Sequence record: MF158043
Reading direction: 5' to 3' (one strand)
DNA: 64,000 bases
Origin: Shigella phage Sf16
Numbering within the stretch: the stretch's first letter is position 1; each line of letters starts with the position of its first letter. Both the position numbers and the translations under genes were made by a program. The notes beneath the pieces were generated by a model that ran no database searches, was not told the DNA's origin, and saw nothing but the letters and a program-made list of their open reading frames with translations. Below, piece after piece: positions 24,148-60,251 of the stretch.

Positions 24148-24528
24148 TTATAAACCCATGCAGTGACGATTTTCAATAAAGTATTGAACACCTTTGAAAG
24201 ACTCACGCATAAAGTTGTCTTTCACATCTTCTACAGTCTCAATACCTTTGCTATCAAGAAGGTCAACGTTCTGAGTGACCATCTCATCTGCTAATCTGTC
24301 ATAGTAATCTCCCATAAAATGGTAGTTGTAGTCAACCATCTTATCAGTCATTTCTTGAACAGTCTGAGCAGACAACGGTTTAGTCAACTCTCCAGCATTT
24401 GAAGCGATTTTCTGTACAATCTTACAAGATTCTAAAGCAACACCATTAAAGTTTGCTTCAGGCATCTTCATAGCTGCTGCACTAAAACTCATACCAAGAG
24501 CAACAATACCAACAAGTAACTTTTTCAT
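24148..24528 (-). CDS. secreted/periplasmic protein
   Basis: N-terminal signal peptide MKKLLVGIVALGMSFSAAA. Confidence 0.45.
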   Translation of the reverse strand: MKKLLVGIVALGMSFSAAAMKMPEANFNGVALESCKIVQKIASNAGELTKPLSAQTVQEMTDKMVDYNYHFMGDYYDRLADEMVTQNVDLLDSKGIETVEDVKDNFMRESFKGVQYFIENRHCMGL

Positions 24529-35700: not shown

Positions 35701-36747
35701 ATGGAACAATACACCTTAACAAAGCTCCCAGAGAGCGTTACACACGTCTTTATTGACTCTGATAGCATTGCTTACAAAGGTGCTTGTGTAGTTGAAAAAG
35801 CAAAGTACAAGTATGTGAATAAAATCACTGCTGAAGAATCCGATGCTTTTGATAGTGCAAAACTGGCAGCACAATGGTTGTCTGACCAAAGAGTTTTAAC
35901 TGAAGAGTTAGGACTTGACTTTGATGAAGATGAATGGGAAAGACAGACTTGGAAGGAAGCTAAAAGTGAAGCTGAAGCAATTATGGCTACACAGCAAGTT
36001 CTTCAGGAGTGGTTGAAAGTCGTTGGTAAAGAACGCAAATGGATGGGTTACCTTACTGAGAAAGGTGTTCACAAACACAAGGATATCAAAGGTCTTGAAC
36101 ACCAATATCAAGGTAACAGAAAAGAAGCTGTCACACCTACACACCTAGTTGCTTGTCGTGAGTATCTTCTGTCACGACCAGAGTTTAAGCTCCTAAAAGG
36201 GGGCTTCGAAGCAGACTCTATCGTTATTGCAAAAGCTGAGAAGATGGGTAAAAAAGCTGCTCTGATGAGTATTGATAAAGACCTTCGTCAAGCTGAAGGA
36301 ACTTACTGTATTGATATGACTTATGAGAAAGCTCCATTAATTTTCATTGCAGATAATAACGTTGGTGAGATTTGGGATTGCCCTATCAAATCTAAACCGA
36401 AAGCTAAGAAGACAGTCGGAGTGGGTTTTAAATTCCTCTGCTATCAAGCTGTAGCAGGTGATAATGCAGACAACTACTTCGGTTTAAAAGGTGCTGGTAA
36501 GGTTGCGGTGATGAATGCACTGGAAGGTAAGACTACCTATAAAGAGTGCTTAGATGCAATCTATGAACTTTATGCTAAGAAAGACTCTTACACTTATGAA
36601 TCGTGGGATGGTCAGATTGTGACAAGAACTCCACTAGAACTAATGGAGCAGCACTTCTGGATTGCATACCAAGAAAGAAATCCTAAAGATGATTTCACTT
36701 TTGATAAGTACGGGTGGACACCAAATGCTAACTCAACAAACTCTTAA
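35701..36747 (+). CDS. 5-prime to 3-prime exonuclease / flap endonuclease-like
   Basis: ATG 35701 with GGAGAG RBS; acidic clusters FIDSDSIAYKG, FEADS, SIDKD, and GDNADNYFGLKGAGKVA resembling FEN-type motifs. Confidence 0.5.
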   Translation: MEQYTLTKLPESVTHVFIDSDSIAYKGACVVEKAKYKYVNKITAEESDAFDSAKLAAQWLSDQRVLTEELGLDFDEDEWERQTWKEAKSEAEAIMATQQVLQEWLKVVGKERKWMGYLTEKGVHKHKDIKGLEHQYQGNRKEAVTPTHLVACREYLLSRPEFKLLKGGFEADSIVIAKAEKMGKKAALMSIDKDLRQAEGTYCIDMTYEKAPLIFIADNNVGEIWDCPIKSKPKAKKTVGVGFKFLCYQAVAGDNADNYFGLKGAGKVAVMNALEGKTTYKECLDAIYELYAKKDSYTYESWDGQIVTRTPLELMEQHFWIAYQERNPKDDFTFDKYGWTPNANSTNS

Positions 36748-37216
36748 AGAATACCTACACTATGACCCCGAAACAGGGGTCTTTACTTGGCTTAAAAAGT
36801 CAGCTAAACGTACAAAGATTGGCTCTATAGCGGGTACGAATTTAAAAGGCTATATTAGAATCTACTTGTTTGGTAAAGGTTACTATGCACATTCACTAGC
36901 TGTACTTTATATGGAAGGTTATCTTCCTGAATGTGTTGACCACAAAAATCATGTAACATTGGATAACCGTTGGACTAACCTAAGAGCTTGTACTCTTTCT
37001 GAAAACCAATGTAATAGGTTACTTAACAAGAATAATAAATCTGGTGTCAAAGGGGTGTACTTCCATAAAAAGTATCAAAAATGGTCTACACAAATCACTT
37101 TCAAAAAGAAAGTTTATTTCTTTGGCAATTATGACACTATTGAGGAAGCAGCAGAAGTTGTAAACAGAGAAAGGTTACGTTTACATAAAGAGTTTGCTAA
37201 TAAAGGTGATAAATGA
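36725..37216 (+). CDS. HNH homing endonuclease with AP2-like DNA-binding domain
   Basis: HSLAVLYMEGYLPECVDHKNHVTLDNRWTNLRACTLSENQCN (HNH) followed by GVKGVYFHKKYQKWSTQITF...FGNYDTIEEAA (AP2-like). Confidence 0.6.
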   Translation: MLTQQTLKEYLHYDPETGVFTWLKKSAKRTKIGSIAGTNLKGYIRIYLFGKGYYAHSLAVLYMEGYLPECVDHKNHVTLDNRWTNLRACTLSENQCNRLLNKNNKSGVKGVYFHKKYQKWSTQITFKKKVYFFGNYDTIEEAAEVVNRERLRLHKEFANKGDK

Positions 37217-37716
37217 TAAAAATTAAAGGTTTTGGCAATTGCCCTACTTATGGTCACTGGATTTCACTGTGTGGTGAAGTTGACCCATCAAAATACTTTG
37301 GTTTTGTATATCTAGTCTACTGCAAAAAGACTGGTCAATACTATTTGGGAAAGAAACAATTTAATAACGTCACTAAGAAAAAGGTTGCTGGAAAGACCAG
37401 ACGTAAAGTCGTGACAAAAGAAAGTGATTGGATGACTTACCAAACATCTTCTGAGTACATTAAGAAGGATATTGAATCTTTTGGTGAAAAAGAGTTTGAC
37501 TTCTACATCATCCAGACTTACTATACGCGAGGTGGCTTAGTTTATGGCGAAGCTAACCTACAACATAAGTTTGACGTCATGACAAAAAGGATTGACTCTA
37601 AGCTTCGACTCTTCTACAATGCGAACATTGCAGCAATCAAGTTTCTTACAAAAGAGACCTATGATGAAGCTGAGAAGAGAATCACTAAAATCATGAAACT
37701 TAATGAGAGAGTTTAA
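37213..37716 (+). CDS. putative GIY-YIG-like endonuclease
   Basis: N-terminal FGFVYLVYCKKTGQYYLGKK resembles GIY-(x10)-YIG; downstream R/E-containing region. Confidence 0.4.
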   Translation: MIKIKGFGNCPTYGHWISLCGEVDPSKYFGFVYLVYCKKTGQYYLGKKQFNNVTKKKVAGKTRRKVVTKESDWMTYQTSSEYIKKDIESFGEKEFDFYIIQTYYTRGGLVYGEANLQHKFDVMTKRIDSKLRLFYNANIAAIKFLTKETYDEAEKRITKIMKLNERV

Positions 37717-37933
37717 AATGTTTAATAAAATCAAAAATGACCATGTTTCTAAAATCCAGAGTGGCGTAGCAGCACTGAAGGAAACTATCAGTAAAGCTAA
37801 GTCAGCTACAGAAGCCGAGATGGATGCTCTGGAATCACAAATTCAACATCTGTTAAGCAAACGTGTTGAACTCAAAGAACGAATGGACTATATTGAGTCT
37901 CAACAAAAGTTGTTTGAAGATAAGGAGGCTTAA
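37703..37933 (+). CDS. hypothetical coiled-coil protein
   Basis: 76-aa ORF. Confidence 0.35.
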   Translation: MREFKMFNKIKNDHVSKIQSGVAALKETISKAKSATEAEMDALESQIQHLLSKRVELKERMDYIESQQKLFEDKEA

Positions 37934-38697
37934 TGTTTAATTCCAGAGAATCCGTAAGAAATTGGAATCTACGTTGTGGCAATAATCCAAAAGAACCATA
38001 CAGCACAGAGTATTGGGAATCACTGAAAAGCCAATCTCTGTGTATGCTTGAAGAAGCTAGAGAGTTAGTCGCAGCAGTAGAAGCCAAAGACCCTGTTGAG
38101 ACCCTTGATGCTCAAGCTGATTTGCAGTATGTACTTGATGGTTTAATTTTCCTGACACAGCATGACCATGATGGTGCTATCAAGGCTGTTTGTGAAAACA
38201 ACAACCTCAAATACACAGATGACTATCAAGAAGCTGTACAGAGAATGTTTGATATTGAGAAACGTACTGGTGATGAATGTTACCTGCGCCAATCAATTAT
38301 TGAAGGCAAAGAGTGGTTTGCGATTATTCGCAAGTCTGATGGTAAGATTATGAAACAGTCTAATCTTCCAAAAGTTCAACTTGAAAGTTTTATTGCAGAA
38401 GTTGACGCAAAAGAATTATTTGTGGTAACATCTGACACATGCGTTATCTGCCAAGGACTGATTGGAAGTCTTGGAAGTCTTGGTAATCTTGGCATTAAAA
38501 ACTTTTCTAAAGTTGAACCAATCTCTTCAAAAGCAGATAAAGACTTCTGCCGTGAGAATGGATTATGGCTTGCGGATATTGTGTACTATGATGGTGAGAA
38601 GTTCCATGTAACCTCATATCCGAAATTGAATTATGATGCAATCAACCTCAAGCAGTGGTTGAAAGGAGTCGGTTATAATGGATTCACAGAACATTAA
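37933..38697 (+). CDS. MazG-like nucleotide pyrophosphohydrolase (putative)
   Basis: EEARELVAAVEAKDPVETLDAQADLQYVLDGL resembles MazG EExxE...D motif. Confidence 0.4.
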   Translation: MFNSRESVRNWNLRCGNNPKEPYSTEYWESLKSQSLCMLEEARELVAAVEAKDPVETLDAQADLQYVLDGLIFLTQHDHDGAIKAVCENNNLKYTDDYQEAVQRMFDIEKRTGDECYLRQSIIEGKEWFAIIRKSDGKIMKQSNLPKVQLESFIAEVDAKELFVVTSDTCVICQGLIGSLGSLGNLGIKNFSKVEPISSKADKDFCRENGLWLADIVYYDGEKFHVTSYPKLNYDAINLKQWLKGVGYNGFTEH

Positions 38698-47515: not shown

Positions 47516-47827
47516 ATGGAAAAGATTTATAACACTCGTAAAATTCAGATTGCAATCCTGTGCCAGTTTATGGCTGATAAACACAATTCACACTATTGTG
47601 GTACAGGTTTCCTTATGCAAGGTAGTGGCTACATTAGTTTCAAAGAAGCTGTGAAGATGTATAATGAGCACCCTGAAGATGACAAAGAGTTGAAACAACT
47701 GAAGCTTACTTATGACAAGAAGCGTAAGAAAATTGTATGCTTGAACAACCTTATCAAGCCAACTGAAAACGTTTATGATTCAATTGGTGAAGAAGGTTTC
47801 TTAAAAGTCTTGAAAATAGCTCAGTAA
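47516..47827 (+). CDS. hypothetical protein
   Basis: 103-aa ORF. Confidence 0.35.
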   Translation: MEKIYNTRKIQIAILCQFMADKHNSHYCGTGFLMQGSGYISFKEAVKMYNEHPEDDKELKQLKLTYDKKRKKIVCLNNLIKPTENVYDSIGEEGFLKVLKIAQ

Positions 47828-47840
47828 ACGTATATGATTA

Positions 47841-47868
47841 GGGAACTGTAAAAGGTTCCCTTTTTATT
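47841..47868 (+). terminator. rho-independent terminator
   Basis: GGGAAC-uguaaaag-GUUCCC followed by UUUUUAUUUU. Confidence 0.6.
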
Positions 47869-47879
47869 TTGGAGAAATC

Positions 47880-48395
47880 ATGTACCATTCAAATCTGAAA
47901 CGTGCTGCTGCAATGTCTGTTCTTCGTCTTGATTTTGATGAGCGTCAAGAGTTCATCGAGTCACATCAGTATGACCCTTCAAATTCTAATCACATGGTGC
48001 TTTGGAATCGTGGTAAGTTCCGTGATAGTGCCTTGTTCCAGTACTACCCTCATTACACTATTGACAACCTCTATGAATACTGCGTTGTCAAGAACACTAT
48101 TGCAACCCTTAATAAGCTTTGTAGATATTCTGGAAAGAAAGCTTTCACATTAGGCCACCATAAGCCCGTGACAAAAGGTGGAGAGCACCATTGCTCGAAC
48201 TGGTTTATCCAGACTCAAGAAGATAACCAGAAGCAGGGAGAGAAGCTTCCAGAAGCCCCTAAGATGACTTGGGAGGAACAGAAAGCATATCTCAAAAATA
48301 ATATGCCACCAATGCTTGACAGGGAATATGCAGTTCTGGCAATATCACTCTTGTTGAAGCTTGAGACAGTTTATGAGGCAACTTATCATGGCTAG
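47880..48395 (+). CDS. HNH-like nuclease domain protein (putative)
   Basis: LGHHKPVTKGGEHHCSNWFIQTQEDNQKQG resembles the HNH core. Confidence 0.35.
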   Translation: MYHSNLKRAAAMSVLRLDFDERQEFIESHQYDPSNSNHMVLWNRGKFRDSALFQYYPHYTIDNLYEYCVVKNTIATLNKLCRYSGKKAFTLGHHKPVTKGGEHHCSNWFIQTQEDNQKQGEKLPEAPKMTWEEQKAYLKNNMPPMLDREYAVLAISLLLKLETVYEATYHG

Positions 48396-48666
48396 AGAAC
48401 AATGGGATATCAAAGAGCTTATTAGCGAAGCTGGAAATGGTAGTGAGATGTATATGATACGTGGTCACGTCCCAGATGCACTTGCTATTGAGATGATAGA
48501 CCACTACTCCAACGGATTCTATAAAGAGTTTGGAGAGCCAAATATTGAACGTACTTGGACAAAACCAGTACCAGACGGAACAGGAAACTGTTCAGTTATC
48601 TACCACATTGTAGACCCAAAGAAATGTAAATCAGCTATGGCTGTAACATTTGTAACTTTTGACTGA
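48388..48666 (+). CDS. hypothetical protein
   Basis: internal ATG 48388 of track ORF 48361-48666. Confidence 0.3.
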   Translation: MAREQWDIKELISEAGNGSEMYMIRGHVPDALAIEMIDHYSNGFYKEFGEPNIERTWTKPVPDGTGNCSVIYHIVDPKKCKSAMAVTFVTFD

Positions 48667-48676
48667 GAGATATATT

Positions 48677-49558
48677 ATGAAAACTACTATTCGAGTTCTA
48701 CTTAATTCAAATTCCAAAGGTTCTCATCAAGAGACCTTCAACATTATCCAGTTCCCTTCTGGGGAGATTGGTGGTAACTTCTCAGAAGACTTAGTAGGCT
48801 TTGTTGAACATGCTGCTGGTAAGATTGAAAATGTTATCTTCACTGTACAAGGTTATGACAAAGACACACTCTTTGCATTGGCTATGGCTAAAGAGGCTAT
48901 TGACCGCTTGATTCCTCAGAAAGCAACCATGAAAACTGTTCTTTTTGGATTCTTACCAAATGCTCGCTATGACCGTCACATGTTTAAAGGTGATGCAGCA
49001 GCACTTAAAGTCTTTGCAAATCTTGTAAATGCTATGGAGTTCGATGCAGTATGTGCTCTGGATACTCACAGTAATGTTGCAGAGAATTTGTTTAAGAGCT
49101 TCTACAACCTCCCTCAAAAAGAGGCAGCAGTCCACTTTGCAAGTGACCCACGCATTGATTACTTAGTGGCTCCAGATGCAGGTGCAGCTAAGAAGACTGA
49201 AGAGGCTGCTAAAGAGGTTGAGAAACCTTACATTACAATGGCTAAGGTACGAAACCTGAAAACTGGTGAAATCACTGGTATGCGAATCCTTGATGATGTA
49301 GACTTGACAGGTAAGACTGTCATGATTCTGGATGATATCTGTGACGGTGGTCGAACCTTTATCGAGGCTGCAAAGTATCTTCGTGAAGCTGGAGCAGAAC
49401 GTGTAGAGCTTTATGTGACTCATGGGATTTTCTCTAAAGGTGTTGAAAATCTTCTTGACAATGGTATCGACCATATCTACACTACAAACTCACTCGGGGA
49501 TGAAAAAGACCGTGGTCTTTCCCACTTCTCACAAGTGACCGTAGCAAATATTGAATAA
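48677..49558 (+). CDS. ribose-phosphate pyrophosphokinase (PRS)-like protein; candidate ADP-ribose pyrophosphate synthetase
   Basis: PRS N-domain FPSGEIGG and PRT-type motif VMILDDICDGGRTFIEAAKYLREAGA; adjacent to NAMPT-like gene. Confidence 0.75.
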   Translation: MKTTIRVLLNSNSKGSHQETFNIIQFPSGEIGGNFSEDLVGFVEHAAGKIENVIFTVQGYDKDTLFALAMAKEAIDRLIPQKATMKTVLFGFLPNARYDRHMFKGDAAALKVFANLVNAMEFDAVCALDTHSNVAENLFKSFYNLPQKEAAVHFASDPRIDYLVAPDAGAAKKTEEAAKEVEKPYITMAKVRNLKTGEITGMRILDDVDLTGKTVMILDDICDGGRTFIEAAKYLREAGAERVELYVTHGIFSKGVENLLDNGIDHIYTTNSLGDEKDRGLSHFSQVTVANIE

Positions 49559-49566
49559 CAACTTTA

Positions 49567-49582
49567 GGGGCTGAAAAGCCCC
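49567..49582 (+). promoter_or_regulatory. GNRA-tetraloop hairpin between PRS-like and NAMPT-like genes
   Basis: GGGGCU-gaaa-AGCCCC; identical 16-mer recurs at 54419-54434. Confidence 0.35.
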
Positions 49583-49602
49583 ACTTTGAGAGAGATAAAA
49601 AG

Positions 49603-51420
49603 ATGACTAAATCACTTTATGCAGTACCAGCAGCACTTAATGCAGATGCCTACAAATCTGGCCATTTCTACCAGTATCCAGATGCTACACAGTATCTTAT
49701 GCTGAACTTAACACCTCGTGGAGACAAATGGTTTAACTCTCCGTTAGAGATTGATGGTGTTGTAGCCTTTGGTATTCAGCGTTTTGTAAAAGACTATCTG
49801 GTAGACCACTGGAATGCAACGTTCTTTGAACGTGATAAGAAAGAAGCCATTGACGAAATCTTGGAAATCATGAATGGTGTTCTCGGTGCAGATGCTATTG
49901 GTCGTCAACATTGGGAAGAACTTCATGACTTGGGCTACCTACCTGTTGAAGTCTACTCTGTAGAGGAAGGTACAATTGTCCCTATGCGTGTCCCGATGAT
50001 TGTATTCAAAAACACTGTAGAGGGATTCCATTGGGTAGCTGGTTACCTTGAAGATGCTTTCTCTGCTGAAATCTGGAAAGCTTGTACGATTGCAACAATT
50101 GCACTGCACTACAAACGTATTTGTAAGCAATGGGCTGACAAGACCTGTGACAACGACTTCCATTTACCTTGGCAGTGTCATGACTTTGCAATGCGTGGTA
50201 TGTCTGGCTTCACAGATGATGCGTTTAACGCAGTAGGTCACCTGACAAGTTTTAAAGGTACTGACAGCTTCCCTGCTGTATATACAGCTAAACGTGCATA
50301 TGGTCAGTTTATGAATGTAGGTGAGATTGGTAACTCTGTCCCAGCGACTGAGCACTCTGTGATGTGTGCAAACATCTCATGGAACAGCCTTAACAAAGAG
50401 GTAAGTGATTGGCATCTATCGCATTCTGACAACTTACTTGATGCAATGCGTTGGCGTGGTGAGGTAGAAACTTTCCATCGCCTTCTGACAGAAGTTTACC
50501 CAACTGGTATTGCAAGTGCCGTATCAGATACTTACAACTTCTGGCGTACTGTTACACAGATTCTGCCAGAGCTACGTAATGTAATCCTGAATCGTGATGG
50601 TAAGTTGGTAATCCGTCCAGACTCTGGAGACCCTGTTCACATTGTCACAGGTTACAAAGCTGTTGAATGGGAAACTGCTAAGTCAATGTTCTATAAGCAC
50701 ATGAAAGAGCTTGCACCGAACAATACACATCTGCATGACACAATCTTGAATTGTGAAATGTCTGATATTGGCTTTGGGTTCTCTGCTTGGCTAATCTCTG
50801 AAGGTTATGAGATGGTTGTTGATAAAGAAGATTTTGAATCTGCTGATACAATCAACTTGATTACTGCTCAGAAGACTGGACAGTTTACTGTGAAGCGTAT
50901 GTTAACAGCAGAAATTGATGGAGCTATCCACACGCTGTATAACATCTTTGGTGGCACTGTTAACTCCAAAGGGTACAAAGTACTGGATGAGCACATTGGA
51001 CTAATCTACGGTGATTCAATCACTCTGGAAAGGGCTAATGAGATTCTGTCACGTCTTGCTGATAAAGGTTTTGCAAGTTCTAACGTAGTGTTTGGTGTAG
51101 GCTCATATACCTATCAGTACCTGACTCGTGACACCTTTGCATTTGCTGTTAAAGCAACTCTTGCACAGATGGATGGTCAAGAAATTATGCTGGCTAAAGA
51201 CCCTAAAACTGACAGTGGTCTTAAGAAGTCTGCTTTTGGTGGAGTTGTCCCTATGTGGGATGGTGACAAGCTAGTAGCTGTAGATGGTTTTGGCTTTGCA
51301 GAGTTTGAAGGTGCAATTGACAATTGTCATAGTGCTTTGAAGCTGGTATTTAGTAACTCGCAACCTTATGGTTACGTTAACCTGCGTGATGTTCGAAATA
51401 CTATTGACAAGCAACTTTAA
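49603..51420 (+). CDS. nicotinamide phosphoribosyltransferase (NAMPT/NadV)-like protein
   Basis: 605 aa, N-terminal NADAYKSGHFYQYP signature of NAMPT family. Confidence 0.8.
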   Translation: MTKSLYAVPAALNADAYKSGHFYQYPDATQYLMLNLTPRGDKWFNSPLEIDGVVAFGIQRFVKDYLVDHWNATFFERDKKEAIDEILEIMNGVLGADAIGRQHWEELHDLGYLPVEVYSVEEGTIVPMRVPMIVFKNTVEGFHWVAGYLEDAFSAEIWKACTIATIALHYKRICKQWADKTCDNDFHLPWQCHDFAMRGMSGFTDDAFNAVGHLTSFKGTDSFPAVYTAKRAYGQFMNVGEIGNSVPATEHSVMCANISWNSLNKEVSDWHLSHSDNLLDAMRWRGEVETFHRLLTEVYPTGIASAVSDTYNFWRTVTQILPELRNVILNRDGKLVIRPDSGDPVHIVTGYKAVEWETAKSMFYKHMKELAPNNTHLHDTILNCEMSDIGFGFSAWLISEGYEMVVDKEDFESADTINLITAQKTGQFTVKRMLTAEIDGAIHTLYNIFGGTVNSKGYKVLDEHIGLIYGDSITLERANEILSRLADKGFASSNVVFGVGSYTYQYLTRDTFAFAVKATLAQMDGQEIMLAKDPKTDSGLKKSAFGGVVPMWDGDKLVAVDGFGFAEFEGAIDNCHSALKLVFSNSQPYGYVNLRDVRNTIDKQL

Positions 51421-51435
51421 AACAGTATGATAAGA

Positions 51436-51459
51436 GGCTCCCGTAGGAGCCTTTTTAAT
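51436..51459 (+). terminator. rho-independent terminator
   Basis: GGCUCC-cgua-GGAGCC followed by UUUUU. Confidence 0.6.
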
Positions 51460-52032: not shown

Positions 52033-54405
52033 ATGCGCATGGTAAATGACCACGCAACGGTAATTAAAAGCTCAAGTACACTGGAAACCTCTCAGGCTCA
52101 GATTAAGATGACACCTGAAATGTTCAGTCTTCTAAGCTCAGGTGTTTACACATATAAAGAACGTGCTGTAATTCGTGAATTGTCATGTAACGCAGTAGAT
52201 GCTCACATTGATTCTGGTAACGTTGATAAACCTTTCTTGGTTCACTTACCAACTCGTTTCGAGCCATTCTTTGAAGTTCGTGACTTTGGTACAGGGCTGA
52301 CTCATGATAAAGTTATGAAACTTTACATGACCTATGGAGAATCTACAAAGAACGATTCAAACGACTACATTGGTGCTATGGGTATCGGTTCAAAGTCACC
52401 TTTTGCGATTGCTCAGTCATTCACTGTATCAAGCTATGTTGATGGTGTAGTTAACAAATACTCAGTTTACCTTGAGAATGGTATCCCTCAAGTAACTAAG
52501 TTGACTACTAACCCAACTACAGAGCCAAATGGTTTAGCTGTTCGAGTAGCGGTATCCGATAACCGTATCAACAAGTTTCATGAAGAAGCGAGCAATGTAT
52601 ACTCGTACTTTAAAGTTAAGCCAGAGTGTAATGTTGAGTACTATGACATTCTTGAAGCAATGACTTCCATTTCTCGTGAAGATGGTGTCTATGATGCAAT
52701 GAAGTACAAAGAGAACTGGCGCTCAAATAGTAACAGCGTCCATTTCAATGTAATCATGGGTAACATTGCTTATCCGGTTGAAATGGGTGAGTTGCTTGGC
52801 TCAGAGTTTACAAGCATTCTGCCTCAGTTCTTCCGTAGTGCTGTAGACCTTGTTAACATCTACATGCCAATTGGTTCAGTGGCTATTGCTGCATCTCGTG
52901 AAGCATTGCAGATGAATGAAACTACTAAGACCAAGATTGTTGAAGCTGTGAAGAAAATCACTAAGACAATCGTAGAAGATGTGGTAAAAGAGGTTGCTAA
53001 TAAGCCAACTCTGATTGATGCTGCTCAAGCCTATGATACCATGAGGAAGGAGGCTCGTGAAATCTTTATTCACGTCCAAGATTCTCTGGAATGGCAAGGC
53101 CAGAACTTGAAAAAGCTTGAACAAAAGCTGCTAGGTATTCGCCGTGGTCAGTTAACTGAAGCAGATGGTTCTCCGTCATTCTTGAAAGATGATGCAGGTA
53201 ACTTGAGGCTTGACAAAGATGGTAATCCAGTTCCTAATATTGGTAATCTGTATGAACCTGTAGCATACTACAAGTACAGCAGTCTGGAGAACCGTATTCG
53301 AGCAACTTCAGCAACTTATTCACAAGATGCAGCAATGTTTAGTATCTTTGGTGCAATGAGTAAAGATAAGTTGAGCAACTATTTGTTCCTTATCAATGAC
53401 CGTCGAAACAAGAACGGGTCTGAGAAGACAACCGGTAAAAACCAGATTATCCGTGGAGCTTGCCGTGACCGTGAACAGGAAGACTCTAACTTCCGTCGCT
53501 ACAACGGTATTGCTTTCTTGTTCAGCAGTCAGCAGCAATTCGATGAGTTTGTAGATTTGCATATGCTTGACAAGAGTCTGTTAAGTGTGCATACAATGTC
53601 ATCTAAAGAGCACCACTATGAGAAACGTACTATTGTACGTGGTGTTATAAAACTGTATAAAGCATTTATATGTCCAAATACCGACATGATTCGCTATACA
53701 GAGGTTAAAGAGAACTTTGATGAGATTGAAGAACCACAACTGTATATCAAAGCACAGAGTGATGAAGTGATTGGTGGAATCTTCTCATGTTCACCAGAAC
53801 GTGCTGCAACGTTGATGACAGAGTTAACTGGACAGTCAGTTTATGTCTTCCGTAAAGCCAACTGGAAAAAGATTCCTGAAGATTGGACAGAAGTCAATGA
53901 ACAAGTATTGAAAGATTTTATTGATGCCACACATTGGATTGAGTATCATCGTTTCTTGACTCACCAGTATATGACAAATAATCACGATATCACTGATTGT
54001 AATGTTATTTCTCGAAACTTTACGTTTGCTGATAAGCGTAAGTCCAGAGGCCACATTTACAGTAAAGATTTTAAGAAGACTATTTTCTTAGAAGGGAATG
54101 AAGAGGCTATAGAAGCAATGTTTGGACGCTTGGCATACACTGCTGCACCAGTTGCTTACAAAGATATTACCAGCACTCTTGATACCATTCGTAGGAATAT
54201 GAGAGGTTCTTGTAAGCCAAGAAAGGTTCTGGATAATGCTAAGAAGCGTCTTGAAAGCAAGTTCAAAGATTACTTTGAGAAACGCCGTAAAGAAAACTTC
54301 TTGCTTTCTAATCTGGATTGGAATAAAGTATCACCAGTCGAAGTTGGTAAGTTTTTAGGTTTTGACACTAAGAGCATTCCAGAAGATACTGTATGCTGGG
54401 ATTAA
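52033..54405 (+). CDS. rIIA: rIIA-like protein (GHKL ATPase-like N-domain)
   Basis: RELSCNAVDAH, RDFGTGL, SNDYIGAMGIGSKSPF motifs as in T4 rIIA; 790 aa; followed by rIIB-like gene. Confidence 0.7.
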   Translation: MRMVNDHATVIKSSSTLETSQAQIKMTPEMFSLLSSGVYTYKERAVIRELSCNAVDAHIDSGNVDKPFLVHLPTRFEPFFEVRDFGTGLTHDKVMKLYMTYGESTKNDSNDYIGAMGIGSKSPFAIAQSFTVSSYVDGVVNKYSVYLENGIPQVTKLTTNPTTEPNGLAVRVAVSDNRINKFHEEASNVYSYFKVKPECNVEYYDILEAMTSISREDGVYDAMKYKENWRSNSNSVHFNVIMGNIAYPVEMGELLGSEFTSILPQFFRSAVDLVNIYMPIGSVAIAASREALQMNETTKTKIVEAVKKITKTIVEDVVKEVANKPTLIDAAQAYDTMRKEAREIFIHVQDSLEWQGQNLKKLEQKLLGIRRGQLTEADGSPSFLKDDAGNLRLDKDGNPVPNIGNLYEPVAYYKYSSLENRIRATSATYSQDAAMFSIFGAMSKDKLSNYLFLINDRRNKNGSEKTTGKNQIIRGACRDREQEDSNFRRYNGIAFLFSSQQQFDEFVDLHMLDKSLLSVHTMSSKEHHYEKRTIVRGVIKLYKAFICPNTDMIRYTEVKENFDEIEEPQLYIKAQSDEVIGGIFSCSPERAATLMTELTGQSVYVFRKANWKKIPEDWTEVNEQVLKDFIDATHWIEYHRFLTHQYMTNNHDITDCNVISRNFTFADKRKSRGHIYSKDFKKTIFLEGNEEAIEAMFGRLAYTAAPVAYKDITSTLDTIRRNMRGSCKPRKVLDNAKKRLESKFKDYFEKRRKENFLLSNLDWNKVSPVEVGKFLGFDTKSIPEDTVCWD

Positions 54406-54484: not shown

Positions 54485-55606
54485 ATGACTACTAAGACTA
54501 AAGCACAAATCGACGCAGAAATCTATGCACTGGTTAAAGAAGGTAAACTGACCAAAACTGCAATCGCTCTGAAGTATAACACTTCAACCCGTTCGGTAGG
54601 TCGTGCTGTAGAGCGTCATGAAGCAACGCTGCTGTCAGGGAAAACCAAAGCAAAACCTGCAAAGACTCTGAAAGATATTGCAAAGAGTGCTAAGAAAGCT
54701 AAAGCGACCAAGAAGGTATCTAAGCAGAAACCTGTTGCAAAAGCTGTTAAAGAAGCAGTTAAAGCAGAACCTGTAAATGCTCTGCATGAAGCAATGCAGA
54801 ATAACAGCCAGATTGAGTACATGATTACTGGCGATTCTGTTATCATGACTTTCGGTGCAGAGTCTGAGATTGTTGAGTCAACTCATCCTAACTACACTGA
54901 TATTGTAATGGCTGTTGTTTCAGGTGAGTACAAGAAAGCTTTTGAACTGATGAACATTCGCAAGTCTATTGAGAACTTCACTCAGGGTGCTGTAACCATC
55001 AAAGGCGACAACCTGTATTACGGTGCTGTTCAGATGCGCTCAACTCTGGTAGACCGTATTCTGGATATGATGAAGAAAGGTGATAGTGGTTTTGTTCGAC
55101 TGATTGCATTCTTCGAAAAACTGATGGAAAACCCATCAAAAGATTCTGTAGAACAACTTTGGGGCTTCGTATCACACCTTGATGTTGAAATTGATGAAGA
55201 AGGTTATATCATCGGCTGGAAGAAAGTCACAACTCGTGGTGGTAAACTGTTTGACTCTCGCACCTGCAAAGTTCCAAATGATTTGGGTAACATTGTAGAG
55301 ATGCCACGTTGGATGGTTGATAATAACCGTCATGTAACCTGCTCTCAGGGTCTGCACGTTGGTGCTTGGGATTATGTAACTAGCTTCTCTGGTGACACTA
55401 TCCTGAAAGTTCGTGTTCATCCTCGTGATGTTGTTTCAGTACCAACTGACTACAACGACATGAAAATGCGAGCTTCCCGCTATGAAGTTGCAGCGATTGT
55501 AAATAGTCGCCGTGAAGTCATCAAAGAGTGGGATGGTTCAGAAGCACTCCACGTAGTTGTAGGTACTGCTGGTGAACTGATTTCTCAGCGTAAACGTGAA
55601 GTTTAA
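54485..55606 (+). CDS. rIIB: rIIB-like protein
   Basis: C-terminal KVRVHPRDVVSVPTDYNDMKMR and LVDRILDMMKKGD resemble T4 rIIB; Lys/Ala-rich insert near N-terminus. Confidence 0.65.
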   Translation: MTTKTKAQIDAEIYALVKEGKLTKTAIALKYNTSTRSVGRAVERHEATLLSGKTKAKPAKTLKDIAKSAKKAKATKKVSKQKPVAKAVKEAVKAEPVNALHEAMQNNSQIEYMITGDSVIMTFGAESEIVESTHPNYTDIVMAVVSGEYKKAFELMNIRKSIENFTQGAVTIKGDNLYYGAVQMRSTLVDRILDMMKKGDSGFVRLIAFFEKLMENPSKDSVEQLWGFVSHLDVEIDEEGYIIGWKKVTTRGGKLFDSRTCKVPNDLGNIVEMPRWMVDNNRHVTCSQGLHVGAWDYVTSFSGDTILKVRVHPRDVVSVPTDYNDMKMRASRYEVAAIVNSRREVIKEWDGSEALHVVVGTAGELISQRKREV

Positions 55607-56940: not shown

Positions 56941-57405
56941 ATGCAAAACATTATTACAGTAGCTATCGATGCTTCCGGTAACAAATCACAGGTAGTTCGT
57001 GAGATTATCAAAAGTAATTTCGATGGTAAAATCTTTCGTGCAGTAAACGTGAAAGCTGATGGTAACATTCGTGAGTATCGTGCAATGTTGAATGTTACAA
57101 AACACGTTAAGGGTGTTGGTTCAACTACTGCTCATAAAGAAAATCTGATGACTATCTATGATATGGGTATGGCTTCAGAGTTAGGTGCAAAAGGGATTGT
57201 ACAATCCGGTGCTCCTTACCGTTCTTTCAATCTGGAAACTGCTCTTATGCTTTCCTTTACAAGTGGTTCTCAAACTACCACTTACCTCTTCACAGATACT
57301 GCAACGGTTTCTGCGATTAAGGACAATACCATTAAGGCTGGCGTAGCTGCTGCTTCAAAAGCCTCAACAATGGCAGCAAATGTCCTTGCGAAAGTTCTTG
57401 GTTAA
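56941..57405 (+). CDS. hypothetical protein
   Basis: 154-aa ORF. Confidence 0.35.
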   Translation: MQNIITVAIDASGNKSQVVREIIKSNFDGKIFRAVNVKADGNIREYRAMLNVTKHVKGVGSTTAHKENLMTIYDMGMASELGAKGIVQSGAPYRSFNLETALMLSFTSGSQTTTYLFTDTATVSAIKDNTIKAGVAAASKASTMAANVLAKVLG

Positions 57406-57416
57406 AGTTATTATAG

Positions 57417-57441
57417 AGGCTCCTTCGGGAGCCTTTTTCAT
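57417..57441 (+). terminator. rho-independent terminator (UUCG tetraloop)
   Basis: AGGCUCC-uucg-GGAGCCU followed by UUUUU. Confidence 0.6.
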
Positions 57442-59254: not shown

Positions 59255-59455
59255 ATGGCTGATTTCTGCACTAAGTGTTCTGTTGAGATGTTTGGAAAAG
59301 ACACAGGGGACTTAAAAGGCCTCTTTACAAAAGCAGAGTTTGAAGCTGGTTCAGCAATGCCAGTAATCTGTGAAGGTTGTGGTGCTTTATGGGTAGACCA
59401 TGAAGGTAACCGAGTTAAACCATCTGAAGATAACGAACGTTGGGAGCATTACTAA
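59255..59455 (+). CDS. small zinc-ribbon protein
   Basis: CTKC ... CEGCG cysteine pairs. Confidence 0.4.
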   Translation: MADFCTKCSVEMFGKDTGDLKGLFTKAEFEAGSAMPVICEGCGALWVDHEGNRVKPSEDNERWEHY

Positions 59456-59456
59456 T

Positions 59457-60251
59457 ATGGGTATCGTAAAAATTATTAAAGGTGATATCTTTAAAGACTT
59501 TGATGGTAAGAAATTTGATATCATTGGTCACGGTTGTAACTGCATGAACTTGATGGGTGCAGGTATCGCAGCAACAATTGCCAAACGTTACCCAAAAGCT
59601 TATGAAACTGACGCTGAAGTTTATGCTACAGTAGGTGGTGAAAATCATAACCCTAAGCATCTAATGCTTGGTAACATCTCTGTAGCACGTTTTAAGCAGG
59701 GTCGAATTGCTAACCTTTACACTCAGGTTATCACTGGCAAAGATGCACGATACAACGCCTTAGAAGCAGCTTTACAGCGTCTTAACAACTACTGTAAAGT
59801 TAATCAACTTAAGAAAGTTGGGCTTCCGATGATTGGTGCAGGGATTGGTGGTCTTGATAGCATGGCTGTGCTGTCCATTATCAACCAGACTATGAAGGAT
59901 GTTGACGTTTATATGTATGTCTATGAAGATAAGATGTACAGTCAGTTGACTAGTCCTGTTACTGGTTGGGAGAACTTCAGTGAGCCTCAATACTTTGATG
60001 GTGTTGCTGTGGTAGGCAAGGATAAAGTTACCCTCAAGGTGAAGCGTAATGGCAAGGTACACACCAGTTACCCTCCGGTTGAGAAGTACAATCGAAGTAA
60101 CGCTCAAGTTACCCACCCGTTACAAGGCCACCACCACAGAGCGGTAACGTTTGGCGATGATGCAAGTGTATATATCAATGCGACTACAGAAGAGTTTGCA
60201 GAAGATTATATCACACATGAAAACGTAAACTATGTTGAAGCACGTAACTAA
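59457..60251 (+). CDS. macro-domain protein, TARG1/DarG-like ADP-ribosyl hydrolase (putative)
   Basis: IKGDIF...DIIGHGCNCMNLMGAGIAATIAKRYP and LPMIGAGIGGLD...VYMYVY match the TARG1/DarG macro pattern; extra C-terminal ~110 aa. Confidence 0.65.
   Translation: MGIVKIIKGDIFKDFDGKKFDIIGHGCNCMNLMGAGIAATIAKRYPKAYETDAEVYATVGGENHNPKHLMLGNISVARFKQGRIANLYTQVITGKDARYNALEAALQRLNNYCKVNQLKKVGLPMIGAGIGGLDSMAVLSIINQTMKDVDVYMYVYEDKMYSQLTSPVTGWENFSEPQYFDGVAVVGKDKVTLKVKRNGKVHTSYPPVEKYNRSNAQVTHPLQGHHHRAVTFGDDASVYINATTEEFAEDYITHENVNYVEARN

Follow-up and report, generated by a model that had tools for sequence, protein, structure and literature searches.

Identification of the gene pair

Do two adjacent genes of Shigella phage Sf16 (sequence record MF158043), which by family resemble a phosphoribosyl pyrophosphate (PRPP) synthetase (Prs) and a nicotinamide phosphoribosyltransferase (Nampt), serve ordinary salvage of nicotinamide, or do they rebuild NAD+ directly during infection? 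The question was addressed for a stretch of 64,000 nucleotides, hereafter the window, in which the pair occupies positions 48677 to 51420 of the plus strand. According to our analysis, the pair is very probably the NAD+ reconstitution pathway 1 (NARP1) counter-defence module of a Mooglevirus/Felix O1-like phage. The initial annotation, made from the sequence, had preferred NARP1 to salvage through PRPP and nicotinamide mononucleotide (NMN), and this choice is supported by orthology to genes 79 and 80 of Escherichia phage Bas63, by synteny and by the published determinants of both enzymes. It is a correct re-identification of an already described system and not a new candidate.

The first gene, adps (48677..49558, +), was assigned by orthology and catalytic residues as a PRPS-like ADP-ribose (ADPR) pyrophosphate synthetase of 293 aa. 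Its ATG at 48677 follows a Shine-Dalgarno-like GAGA site and agrees with the annotations of phages Sf15 and Bas63; the open reading frame (ORF) listing takes the frame further upstream, to TTG 48659. The second gene, namat (49603..51420 from ATG to stop, +), encodes a Nampt-like nicotinamide ADP-ribose transferase of 605 aa, a long form with two insertions. Profile searches assigned Adps to PHROG 619 ('ribose-phosphate pyrophosphokinase', E=2e-99) and to Pfam Pribosyltran and Pribosyl_synth, and Namat to PHROG 448 ('nicotinamide phosphoribosyl transferase', E=7e-200) and to Pfam NAPRTase and NAMPT_N. The family matches of both proteins are far beyond chance. The coordinates, strand and families of the two ORFs in the initial annotation were all confirmed, and the peptides it had quoted (FPSGEIGG, VMILDDICDGGRTF and DAYKSGHFYQYP) were found in the translations.

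Orthology and gene order in related phages

NARP1 was first found in Escherichia phage JohannRWettstein (Bas63), a Felixounavirus, where it is encoded by genes 79-80 (Osterman et al., 2024, bioRxiv 10.1101/2024.02.11.579819). Compared with the Bas63 genome (MZ501086), Adps of the window is 81% identical to gp79 and Namat 76% identical to gp80, both over the full length. The two phages have a common gene order: nrdG, small ORFs, a 171-aa ORF, a 92-aa ORF, adps, namat, two small ORFs, rIIA and rIIB. The same order from nrdG to rIIB was observed in Sf15, UAB_69, Ro111lw and phiSUSP1 and, more distantly, in Kolesnikvirus phi63_307. At the DNA level the region shares 98.4% identity with Shigella phage Sf15 (Ounavirinae, Mooglevirus); it matches 257 phage records, nearly all of them from Felix O1-like phages with Escherichia, Salmonella, Shigella or Citrobacter as hosts.

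In their supplementary tables, Osterman et al. (2024) classify proteins of Sf13, Sf15, Sf19, Felix O1, Mordin and phiSUSP1 as either Adps or 'Adps-associated' Namat. Adps of the window is 100% identical to that of Sf19, which stands in Table S1 of the same work with Namat association, and Namat is 99.5% identical to Sf15 gp25, itself listed as an 'Adps-associated' Namat. By this identity and listing, by its similarity to Bas63 gp79, and with a namat gene 44 nt downstream, the protein belongs to the phage Adps clade, 97% of whose members adjoin a Namat gene.

Mosaicism within Mooglevirus was evident between 47880 and 60251. The Adps protein is identical to that of Sf19, the Macro-domain protein encoded further downstream is 100% identical to that of Sf14, and the 171-aa and 92-aa ORFs are 100% identical to those of Citrobacter phage BSwM KMM4; the DNA of the NARP1 genes is nearest to Sf15 (98.4%).

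Determinants of Adps

The two-domain PRPS-like fold of Adps is indicated by both Pfam domains, by TIGR01251 (128.5 bits) and by Prs structures in PDB. TIGR01251, a broad model with a cutoff of 113 bits, was the only one passed. All canonical Prs equivalog and subfamily models of NCBIfam were missed, with scores of 50-129 bits vs. cutoffs of 296-536 (for example, 98.6 vs. 297).

Adps of Vibrio phage ICP1 has been shown in vitro to convert ADPR and ATP to ADPR-pyrophosphate (ADPR-PP) (NAR 2026, gkag901). In the alignment, R97, H131, D167, D219, D220 and D223 of the window protein correspond to the acceptor and catalytic residues R87, H121, D161, D212, D213 and D216 of ICP1 Adps. The catalytic lysine of the beta-hairpin, K190, is aligned to K162 of the homologue from Bacillus phage SpbetaL1 and to K185 of ICP1, mutants of which are inactive. 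The pyrophosphate (PP) loop is of the Adps type and reads DDICDGGRTF vs. DDICDGAASF in ICP1.

Determinants of Namat and its insertions

The best sequence match of Namat in PDB was SpbetaL1 Namat (9W5W/9W5X, E=2e-125), and mammalian and Xanthomonas Nampts followed at 1e-40 to 1e-50. The AlphaFold2 (AF2) model of the protein had pLDDT 91.6 and pTM 0.91. A Foldseek search with this model placed the Namat crystals 9W5X/9W5W at the top (TM score 0.94-0.95, target-normalised), ahead of NadV and human NAMPT. A comparison of both proteins by profile and structure with Adps/Namat and with cellular Prs/NadV had been named in the initial annotation as a check, and its outcome favours NARP1: Adps misses the Prs equivalog cutoffs, and the nearest PDB entries of Namat are Namat structures.

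The residues of Namat were mapped onto the numbering of 9W5W/9W5X. Of the 20 residues that contact NAD in 9W5W, 16 are unchanged and four are conservatively replaced (R40K, S190A, A362S, F392Y). The Nampt catalytic core is kept (D15, Y17, F195, R198, D221, H251, R338 and D340; in SpbetaL1, D13, Y15, F189, R192, D215, the catalytic His, R306 and D308). The catalytic His lies within PATEHS, and R338 is the counterpart of SpbetaL1 R306, whose replacement by Gly or Ala inactivates the enzyme. The selectivity-clamp helix motif GS-X-phi-X-phi-X-phi-TRD is represented by GSYTYQYLTRD (aa 500-510), with Tyr at both adenine-stacking positions. Genuine Nampts taken as controls are without these two aromatic residues: the helix reads GAQTYQRNTRD in Haemophilus ducreyi NadV (Gln/Arg) and GGALLQKVDRD in Xanthomonas Nampt (Ala/Lys). 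In the selectivity-clamp loop, adenine is stacked by Arg at position 3, or by Lys/Tyr and then a stacking residue; the loop TPRGDK42-W43, with the same K-W as in Bas63 Namat, would fit this pattern.

Relative to forms of about 495 aa, Namat carries an insertion of about 25 aa at aa ~256-288 and one of about 73 aa at aa ~350-442. Such long forms occur only in Felix O1-like phages and relatives of these, with an inserted stretch that differs in length and sequence between them. In the model, the region of aa ~350-442 is predicted with confidence to fold as a lineage-specific alpha/beta subdomain of about 75-90 aa, and that of aa ~256-288 appears helical. Neither insertion had a detectable structural relative, and the insertions are not discussed in the Namat structural paper. 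They could add a new property, for instance regulation, or a contact with Adps through which the labile ADPR-PP is channelled. SpbetaL1 Namat, which has no insertions, did not bind Adps.

Mechanism and experimental record of the orthologues

If the pair works as NARP1, a host NADase effector of the SIR2, TIR or SEFIR type would cut NAD+ to ADPR and nicotinamide. Adps would move the beta-gamma pyrophosphate of ATP to the 1'' position on ADPR's terminal ribose, yielding ADPR-PP. Namat would swap that pyrophosphate for nicotinamide and form NAD+ directly, with no NMN intermediate and no NMN adenylyltransferase (NMNAT). For the window pair this assignment is based on orthology, synteny and conserved determinants; the chemistry comes from SpbetaL1 and ICP1 and the phenotype from Bas63, and we infer the same action here.

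Bas63 lacking genes 79-80 is sensitive to SIR2-HerA, shows deeper NAD+ depletion and no longer forms ADPR-PP (m/z 720.01), which was seen solely when both the defence system and the operon were present (Osterman et al., 2024). The effect of the operon persists in a pncC nadR double-mutant host, and the NMN route is therefore ruled out for Bas63. In an independent genome-wide knockout screen, single deletions of g79 or g80 reduced plating on Sir2-HerA by 1e4-1e6-fold, and complementation restored it; weaker effects were recorded against retron Ec86 and hhe.

Since the Bas63 protein purified poorly, the in vitro chemistry was carried out on the SpbetaL1 homologues. SpbetaL1 Adps converted ADPR and ATP to ADPR-PP and gave no product in a Prs-type assay. 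SpbetaL1 Namat converted ADPR-PP and nicotinamide to NAD+, preferred ADPR-PP over PRPP and, given both donors, made NAD+ alone.

These results are hard to reconcile with ordinary salvage, in which a PRPP synthetase and a Nampt/NadV would make NMN and NAD+ would be finished by a host NMNAT or, in a NARP2-like manner, by a phage NMNAT encoded outside the window. The Bas63 orthologues are active in the pncC/nadR double mutant and yield ADPR-PP in vivo, and the SpbetaL1 enzymes behaved in the Prs-type and two-donor assays as described above. In the window itself, the Prs-like protein falls under every Prs equivalog cutoff and Namat has the adenine-clamp signature that true Nampts lack. The Pfam, NCBIfam and PHROG names, which are those of Prs and Nampt, would suit salvage, as would the formation of NMN from PRPP by Namat homologues in vitro and the location of about a quarter of the genome beyond the window. 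Taken together with the survey of competing genes given below, we consider this explanation highly improbable.

The genomic position of the pair raises another alternative, namely that it mainly increases the supply of PRPP and nucleotides for replication and does not act in immunity evasion. The pair adjoins nrdD/nrdG at the end of a block with nrdAB, nrdDG, thymidylate synthase, dihydrofolate reductase and dNMP kinase, and the family names fit such a function. However, Bas63 forms ADPR-PP only under NAD+-depleting defence, its deletion phenotype is specific to defence-carrying hosts, and the flanking Bas63 genes are counter-defence genes too (gp77 against retron Ec67, rIIA/rIIB against QatABCD). 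A role mainly in nucleotide metabolism is thus extremely improbable.

Several observations weigh against the assignment of the pair to NARP1. The chemistry is known from homologues that are about 30-37% identical (SpbetaL1 and ICP1), and the long-form Namat appears to fall outside that set. The adenine-contact residue F92 of ICP1 Adps is replaced by Met (M102) in the window protein, at a position which is also variable among other Adps. Namat homologues keep Nampt activity with PRPP in vitro, and some NMN may be produced by the window Namat as well. Finally, the window represents about 64 of roughly 88-90 kb, and the absence of NMNAT beyond it is taken from the annotations of relatives.

Search for competing NAD+ pathways

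Thirty further ORFs of the window, including every unassigned ORF big enough for an NMNAT, were scanned against Pfam (E<=0.1). No NMNAT (CTP_transf_like), Nudix, NadR, PnuC or RyR (PF02026) domain was detected in these 30 ORFs, and the complete annotation of Bas63 is free of them as well. Both results speak against the salvage pathway considered above. The initial annotation had argued from the lack of an NMNAT-like gene; the observation holds for the ORFs scanned, although it is a much weaker argument than orthology. With no NMNAT/Nudix domain among them, NARP2 was not recognised within the 64-kb window. Neither component of NARP3, which is defined by a PnuC-like transporter and a NadR-like enzyme, was present in the tested ORFs, and RyDEP-assisted NARP1 was not recognised, as RyR was found neither in the neighbouring genes nor in the other ORFs tested.

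A distal Macro-domain gene

About 8 kb downstream of the NARP1 genes, the window encodes a Poa1p-like Macro-domain protein of 264 aa (59457..60251, +), an orthologue of Bas63_0095, named 'putative phosphatase'. The gene, listed as an ORF of 59400-60251, probably starts at ATG 59457, a start that agrees with Bas63_0095 and is preceded at 10 nt by a GGGAG site. The protein matched Pfam Macro with 32.7-32.9 bits, and its best PDB match was yeast Poa1p, an ADPR-1''-phosphatase. By sequence, it is a member of the broad Poa1p-like/Tk.4 family.

Adpp is a Macro phosphatase which extends NARP1 to defence by RES-type NADases (aRES), in an arrangement known as NARP1-AP, and its nearest characterised homologue is Poa1p (bioRxiv 10.64898/2026.01.28.702374). 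The published census of NARP1-AP covered a range of two genes around NARP1, and Felix O1-like phages do not occur in its list (same source). As the census was confined to two genes on either side, it would have missed a distal Macro gene. In the window, the four genes flanking the pair are without a Macro domain, the distal gene is the only Macro gene, and an operon of the NARP1-AP type is absent.

A dispersed form of NARP1-AP, in which the distal Macro protein dephosphorylates the ADPR-1''-phosphate left by RES-type NADases and so supplies Adps, would be compatible with the assignment of the pair to NARP1. The best structural match to Poa1p is consistent with this possibility. The protein is 30-38% identical end to end over the domain to validated or listed Adpp proteins and has all the residues that do not vary among ten Adpps, and its gene is conserved together with NARP1 across Ounavirinae, at a distance that the two-gene census did not cover. 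On the other hand, 2,676 phage records contain Poa1p-like Macro genes, and some of these records belong to T4-like phages that have no NARP1. With a hidden Markov model (HMM) built from the ten Adpps, the window protein scored 109 bits and T4 Tk.4-type proteins 104-107, compared with 114-181 for true Adpps in leave-one-out tests. The gene lies in a separate transcription unit, and its product has an unexplained extra stretch of about 100 aa at the C-terminus and lacks the Trp that Adpps have in their 'GGDW' motif. Similarity of the family to the DarG and TARG1 macrodomains makes the removal of ADP-ribose from DNA or protein an equally possible function. We therefore regard dispersed NARP1-AP as possible but rather unlikely. 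It is doubtful that the Felix O1-type module exceeds the two-enzyme NARP1 in both respects, with the Namat insertions adding a property and the distal Macro enzyme feeding ADPR-1''-phosphate into Adps. If it were so, these phages would withstand RES-type NADases by means of the Macro enzyme, and the published figure of 15% for NARP1-AP would be an underestimate.

Two narrower assignments of the Macro protein were discarded. Its identification as a specific Adpp orthologue was not supported, T4 Tk.4-type proteins scoring equally well, and an NCBIfam match to DarG was not discriminating, as validated Adpps match DarG too.

Spacer hairpin and borders of the transcription unit

The genes adps and namat are separated by 44 bp (49559-49602). 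As the initial annotation had reported, this spacer contains a hairpin with a GNRA loop, GGGGCU-GAAA-AGCCCC (49567..49582, +), which has a folding free energy of -12.8 kcal/mol (z -3.6) and is not followed by a T-run. The stem is kept in Mooglevirus and Felixounavirus, and the loop varies (UGAA, UGAC or UAAA in Felixounaviruses). Two uncompensated stem mismatches were observed in Ro111lw; in Kolesnikvirus phi63_307 the spacer is just 13 nt long and the hairpin is absent; in phiSUSP1 a homing endonuclease gene is inserted in the spacer (L007, 2468-2959) in place of the hairpin. With a variable loop, no covariation and these exceptions, the GNRA hairpin was rejected as a functional element: it is real, but it does not define the module. 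DNA matches in two pieces at adps-namat were also seen in Mordin and BSwM KMM2.

Terminators on both sides of the pair had been proposed in the initial annotation, and terminator-like hairpins are indeed present at 47840 and 51432, but the unit between them consists of four genes (47880-48395, 48388-48666, adps and namat) and not of two. Like the spacer hairpin, the flanking terminators are not among the features that define NARP1. Upstream, a promoter-like site TTGAAA-17-TATGAT (47810-47838) abuts a terminator-like hairpin with a T-run (47840-47861); judged from these consensus matches, the element 47810..47861 (+) would be the upstream boundary of the transcription unit. Downstream, a terminator-like hairpin with a T-run (51432..51455, +; -16.4 kcal/mol, z -3.5) begins 12 nt past the namat stop and is abutted by a promoter-like consensus match, TTGACA-16-TATGAT (51404..51431, +).

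One arrangement recurs in the window (47810-47861, 51404-51455 and 57386-57436, all +): the -10 hexamer of a sigma-70-like promoter lies immediately against a terminator hairpin. The stem AGAGGCTCC...GGAGCCTTT is nearly the same in the hairpins at 51432 and 57415. Transcripts from such a promoter would start inside the 5' arm and escape termination; therefore, the element could end transcripts arriving from upstream and, at that very point, begin transcription anew.

The first gene of the unit (47880..48395, +) encodes the 171-aa orthologue of Bas63 gp77 (77% identity to Bas63_0077; phrog_3500). Bas63 gp77 was reported to counter retron Ec67 and was called GIY-YIG (PhageMaP). Weak matches of the 171-aa ORF to PHROG HNH families and to the HNH region of IscB, together with the motif HHKPVTKGGEHH...N...N, suggest an HNH-like nuclease instead; a search of solved structures with this ORF returned only spurious matches. 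The second gene (48388..48666, +) encodes a 92-aa protein (phrog_4726, the orthologue of Bas63 gp78), and its start overlaps the preceding stop (ATGGCTAG). It is confined to Felix O1-like phages. The two upstream ORFs were rejected as NARP1 accessories, since the 171-aa homologue of Stephanstirmvirinae adjoins a helicase gene and nrdD, and the 92-aa ORF is lineage-restricted. Their adjacency reads as inherited synteny within a counter-defence-rich stretch.

Orthologues of rIIA (52033-54405, +) and rIIB (54485-55606, +) are located just downstream of the NARP1 genes. Their Bas63 counterparts, g84 and g85, were reported to counter QatABCD (PhageMaP).

Other genes in the window

Two genes of homing-endonuclease type are situated back to back among the replication genes, at 36662-37216 and 37213-37716 (+). 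They are different from each other: one has HNH_3 and AP2 domains, the other is a SegE-like GIY-YIG. MazG/PRA-PH-like pyrophosphohydrolase matches were obtained for ORFs 37933-38697 (+, E=7e-7) and 24148-24528 (-, E=0.012); these are possible nucleotide-pool or alarmone-targeting enzymes, unrelated to NARP1.

Related bacterial operons

The nearest non-phage homologues of the window Namat are enterobacterial chromosomal proteins of ~496 aa. In Klebsiella michiganensis (L013, 3211-6491), the Namat-like gene is located directly 3' of a gene for a 289-aa Prs-like protein, which is 38.5% identical to the window Adps and has the PP loop DDLCDAGGTF; the pair is divergent from an NrtR-type regulator gene. 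Eighty bacterial loci from many phyla (L015-L094) were inspected in the same way. The aromatic Namat signature was present in 76 and a Prs-like gene within 4 kb in 75, with an Adps-type PP loop in 74 of these 75 Prs-like neighbours; 63 loci had an NrtR-like gene and 58 combined all three features. All loci obtained by the scan were close relatives of the query, and the frequencies, having no contrast group, carry no enrichment statistic.

Bacterial NARP1 homologues are already known. The NrtR-prs-nadV operon was described in Shewanella, Chromobacterium and Acinetobacter by Rodionov et al. (2008), who showed that NrtR leaves its operator in response to ADPR and considered the dedicated second prs paralogue to be without explanation. 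No paper linking NrtR to NARP1 was found in the literature searched. The composition of the loci suggests that NrtR-prs-nadV operons may be ADPR-induced chromosomal NARP1 modules; if so, these long-puzzling operons would represent NARP1 switched on by its own substrate.

Significance and comparison with known systems

NARP1 was discovered in the same phage group, and nothing in the window alters what is known about it. The value of the assignment lies in correct annotation. The GenBank names 'ribose-phosphate pyrophosphokinase' and 'nicotinamide phosphoribosyltransferase', used in this phage group, are wrong in mechanism and hide the counter-defence role. This role predicts the host range on strains with SIR2, TIR, SEFIR or DSR-type NAD+-depleting systems, and a correct annotation bears on the choice and engineering of therapeutic Shigella, E. 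coli and Citrobacter phages.

The cellular enzymes, such as human PRPS1 on the one hand and human NAMPT, H. ducreyi NadV and Xanthomonas Nampt on the other, have homologous folds and common core chemistry with the window proteins. They differ in that the window Adps is far under the Prs equivalog cutoffs and that the cellular Nampts have no aromatic adenine-stacking pair. NARP2 of Vibrio phage KVP40 (Nampt and a bifunctional NMNAT/Nudix enzyme) also rebuilds NAD+ during infection with an enzyme of the Nampt family, but it proceeds from PRPP to NMN and needs NMNAT; in the window the Nampt-like enzyme has the Namat signature and NMNAT/Nudix was not found. NARP1-AP of Vibrio phage Gary (Adps-Adpp-Namat) has the same Adps/Namat core, and the Poa1p-like Macro protein is homologous to its Adpp. 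Unlike Adpp, this protein is encoded about 8 kb off in another transcription unit, is 264 aa long with a C-terminal extension and is no nearer to Adpp than T4 Tk.4 is.

NARP1 of SpbetaL1 (Namat crystals 9W5W/9W5X) is similar in the folds, in the catalytic residues and in the adenine-clamp motif of Namat, and ICP1 Adps, of which structures are available (NAR 2026, gkag901), in the fold, catalytic residues and the PP-loop and beta-hairpin determinants. Both homologues are only about 30-37% identical to the window proteins, and SpbetaL1 Namat is 491 aa long, is without the insertions of ~25 and ~73 aa and has Arg40 vs. K42-W43 in the window protein. The closest system is NARP1 of Bas63, from the same subfamily (Ounavirinae), which agrees with the window in gene order, neighbouring genes, a long-form Namat with both insertions, the K-W residues of the selectivity loop and a similar intergenic hairpin. 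The differences noted are the genus (Felixounavirus vs. Mooglevirus), the length of Namat (12 residues longer in the window, within the first insertion) and the hairpin loop (UGAA in Bas63 vs. GAAA in the window).

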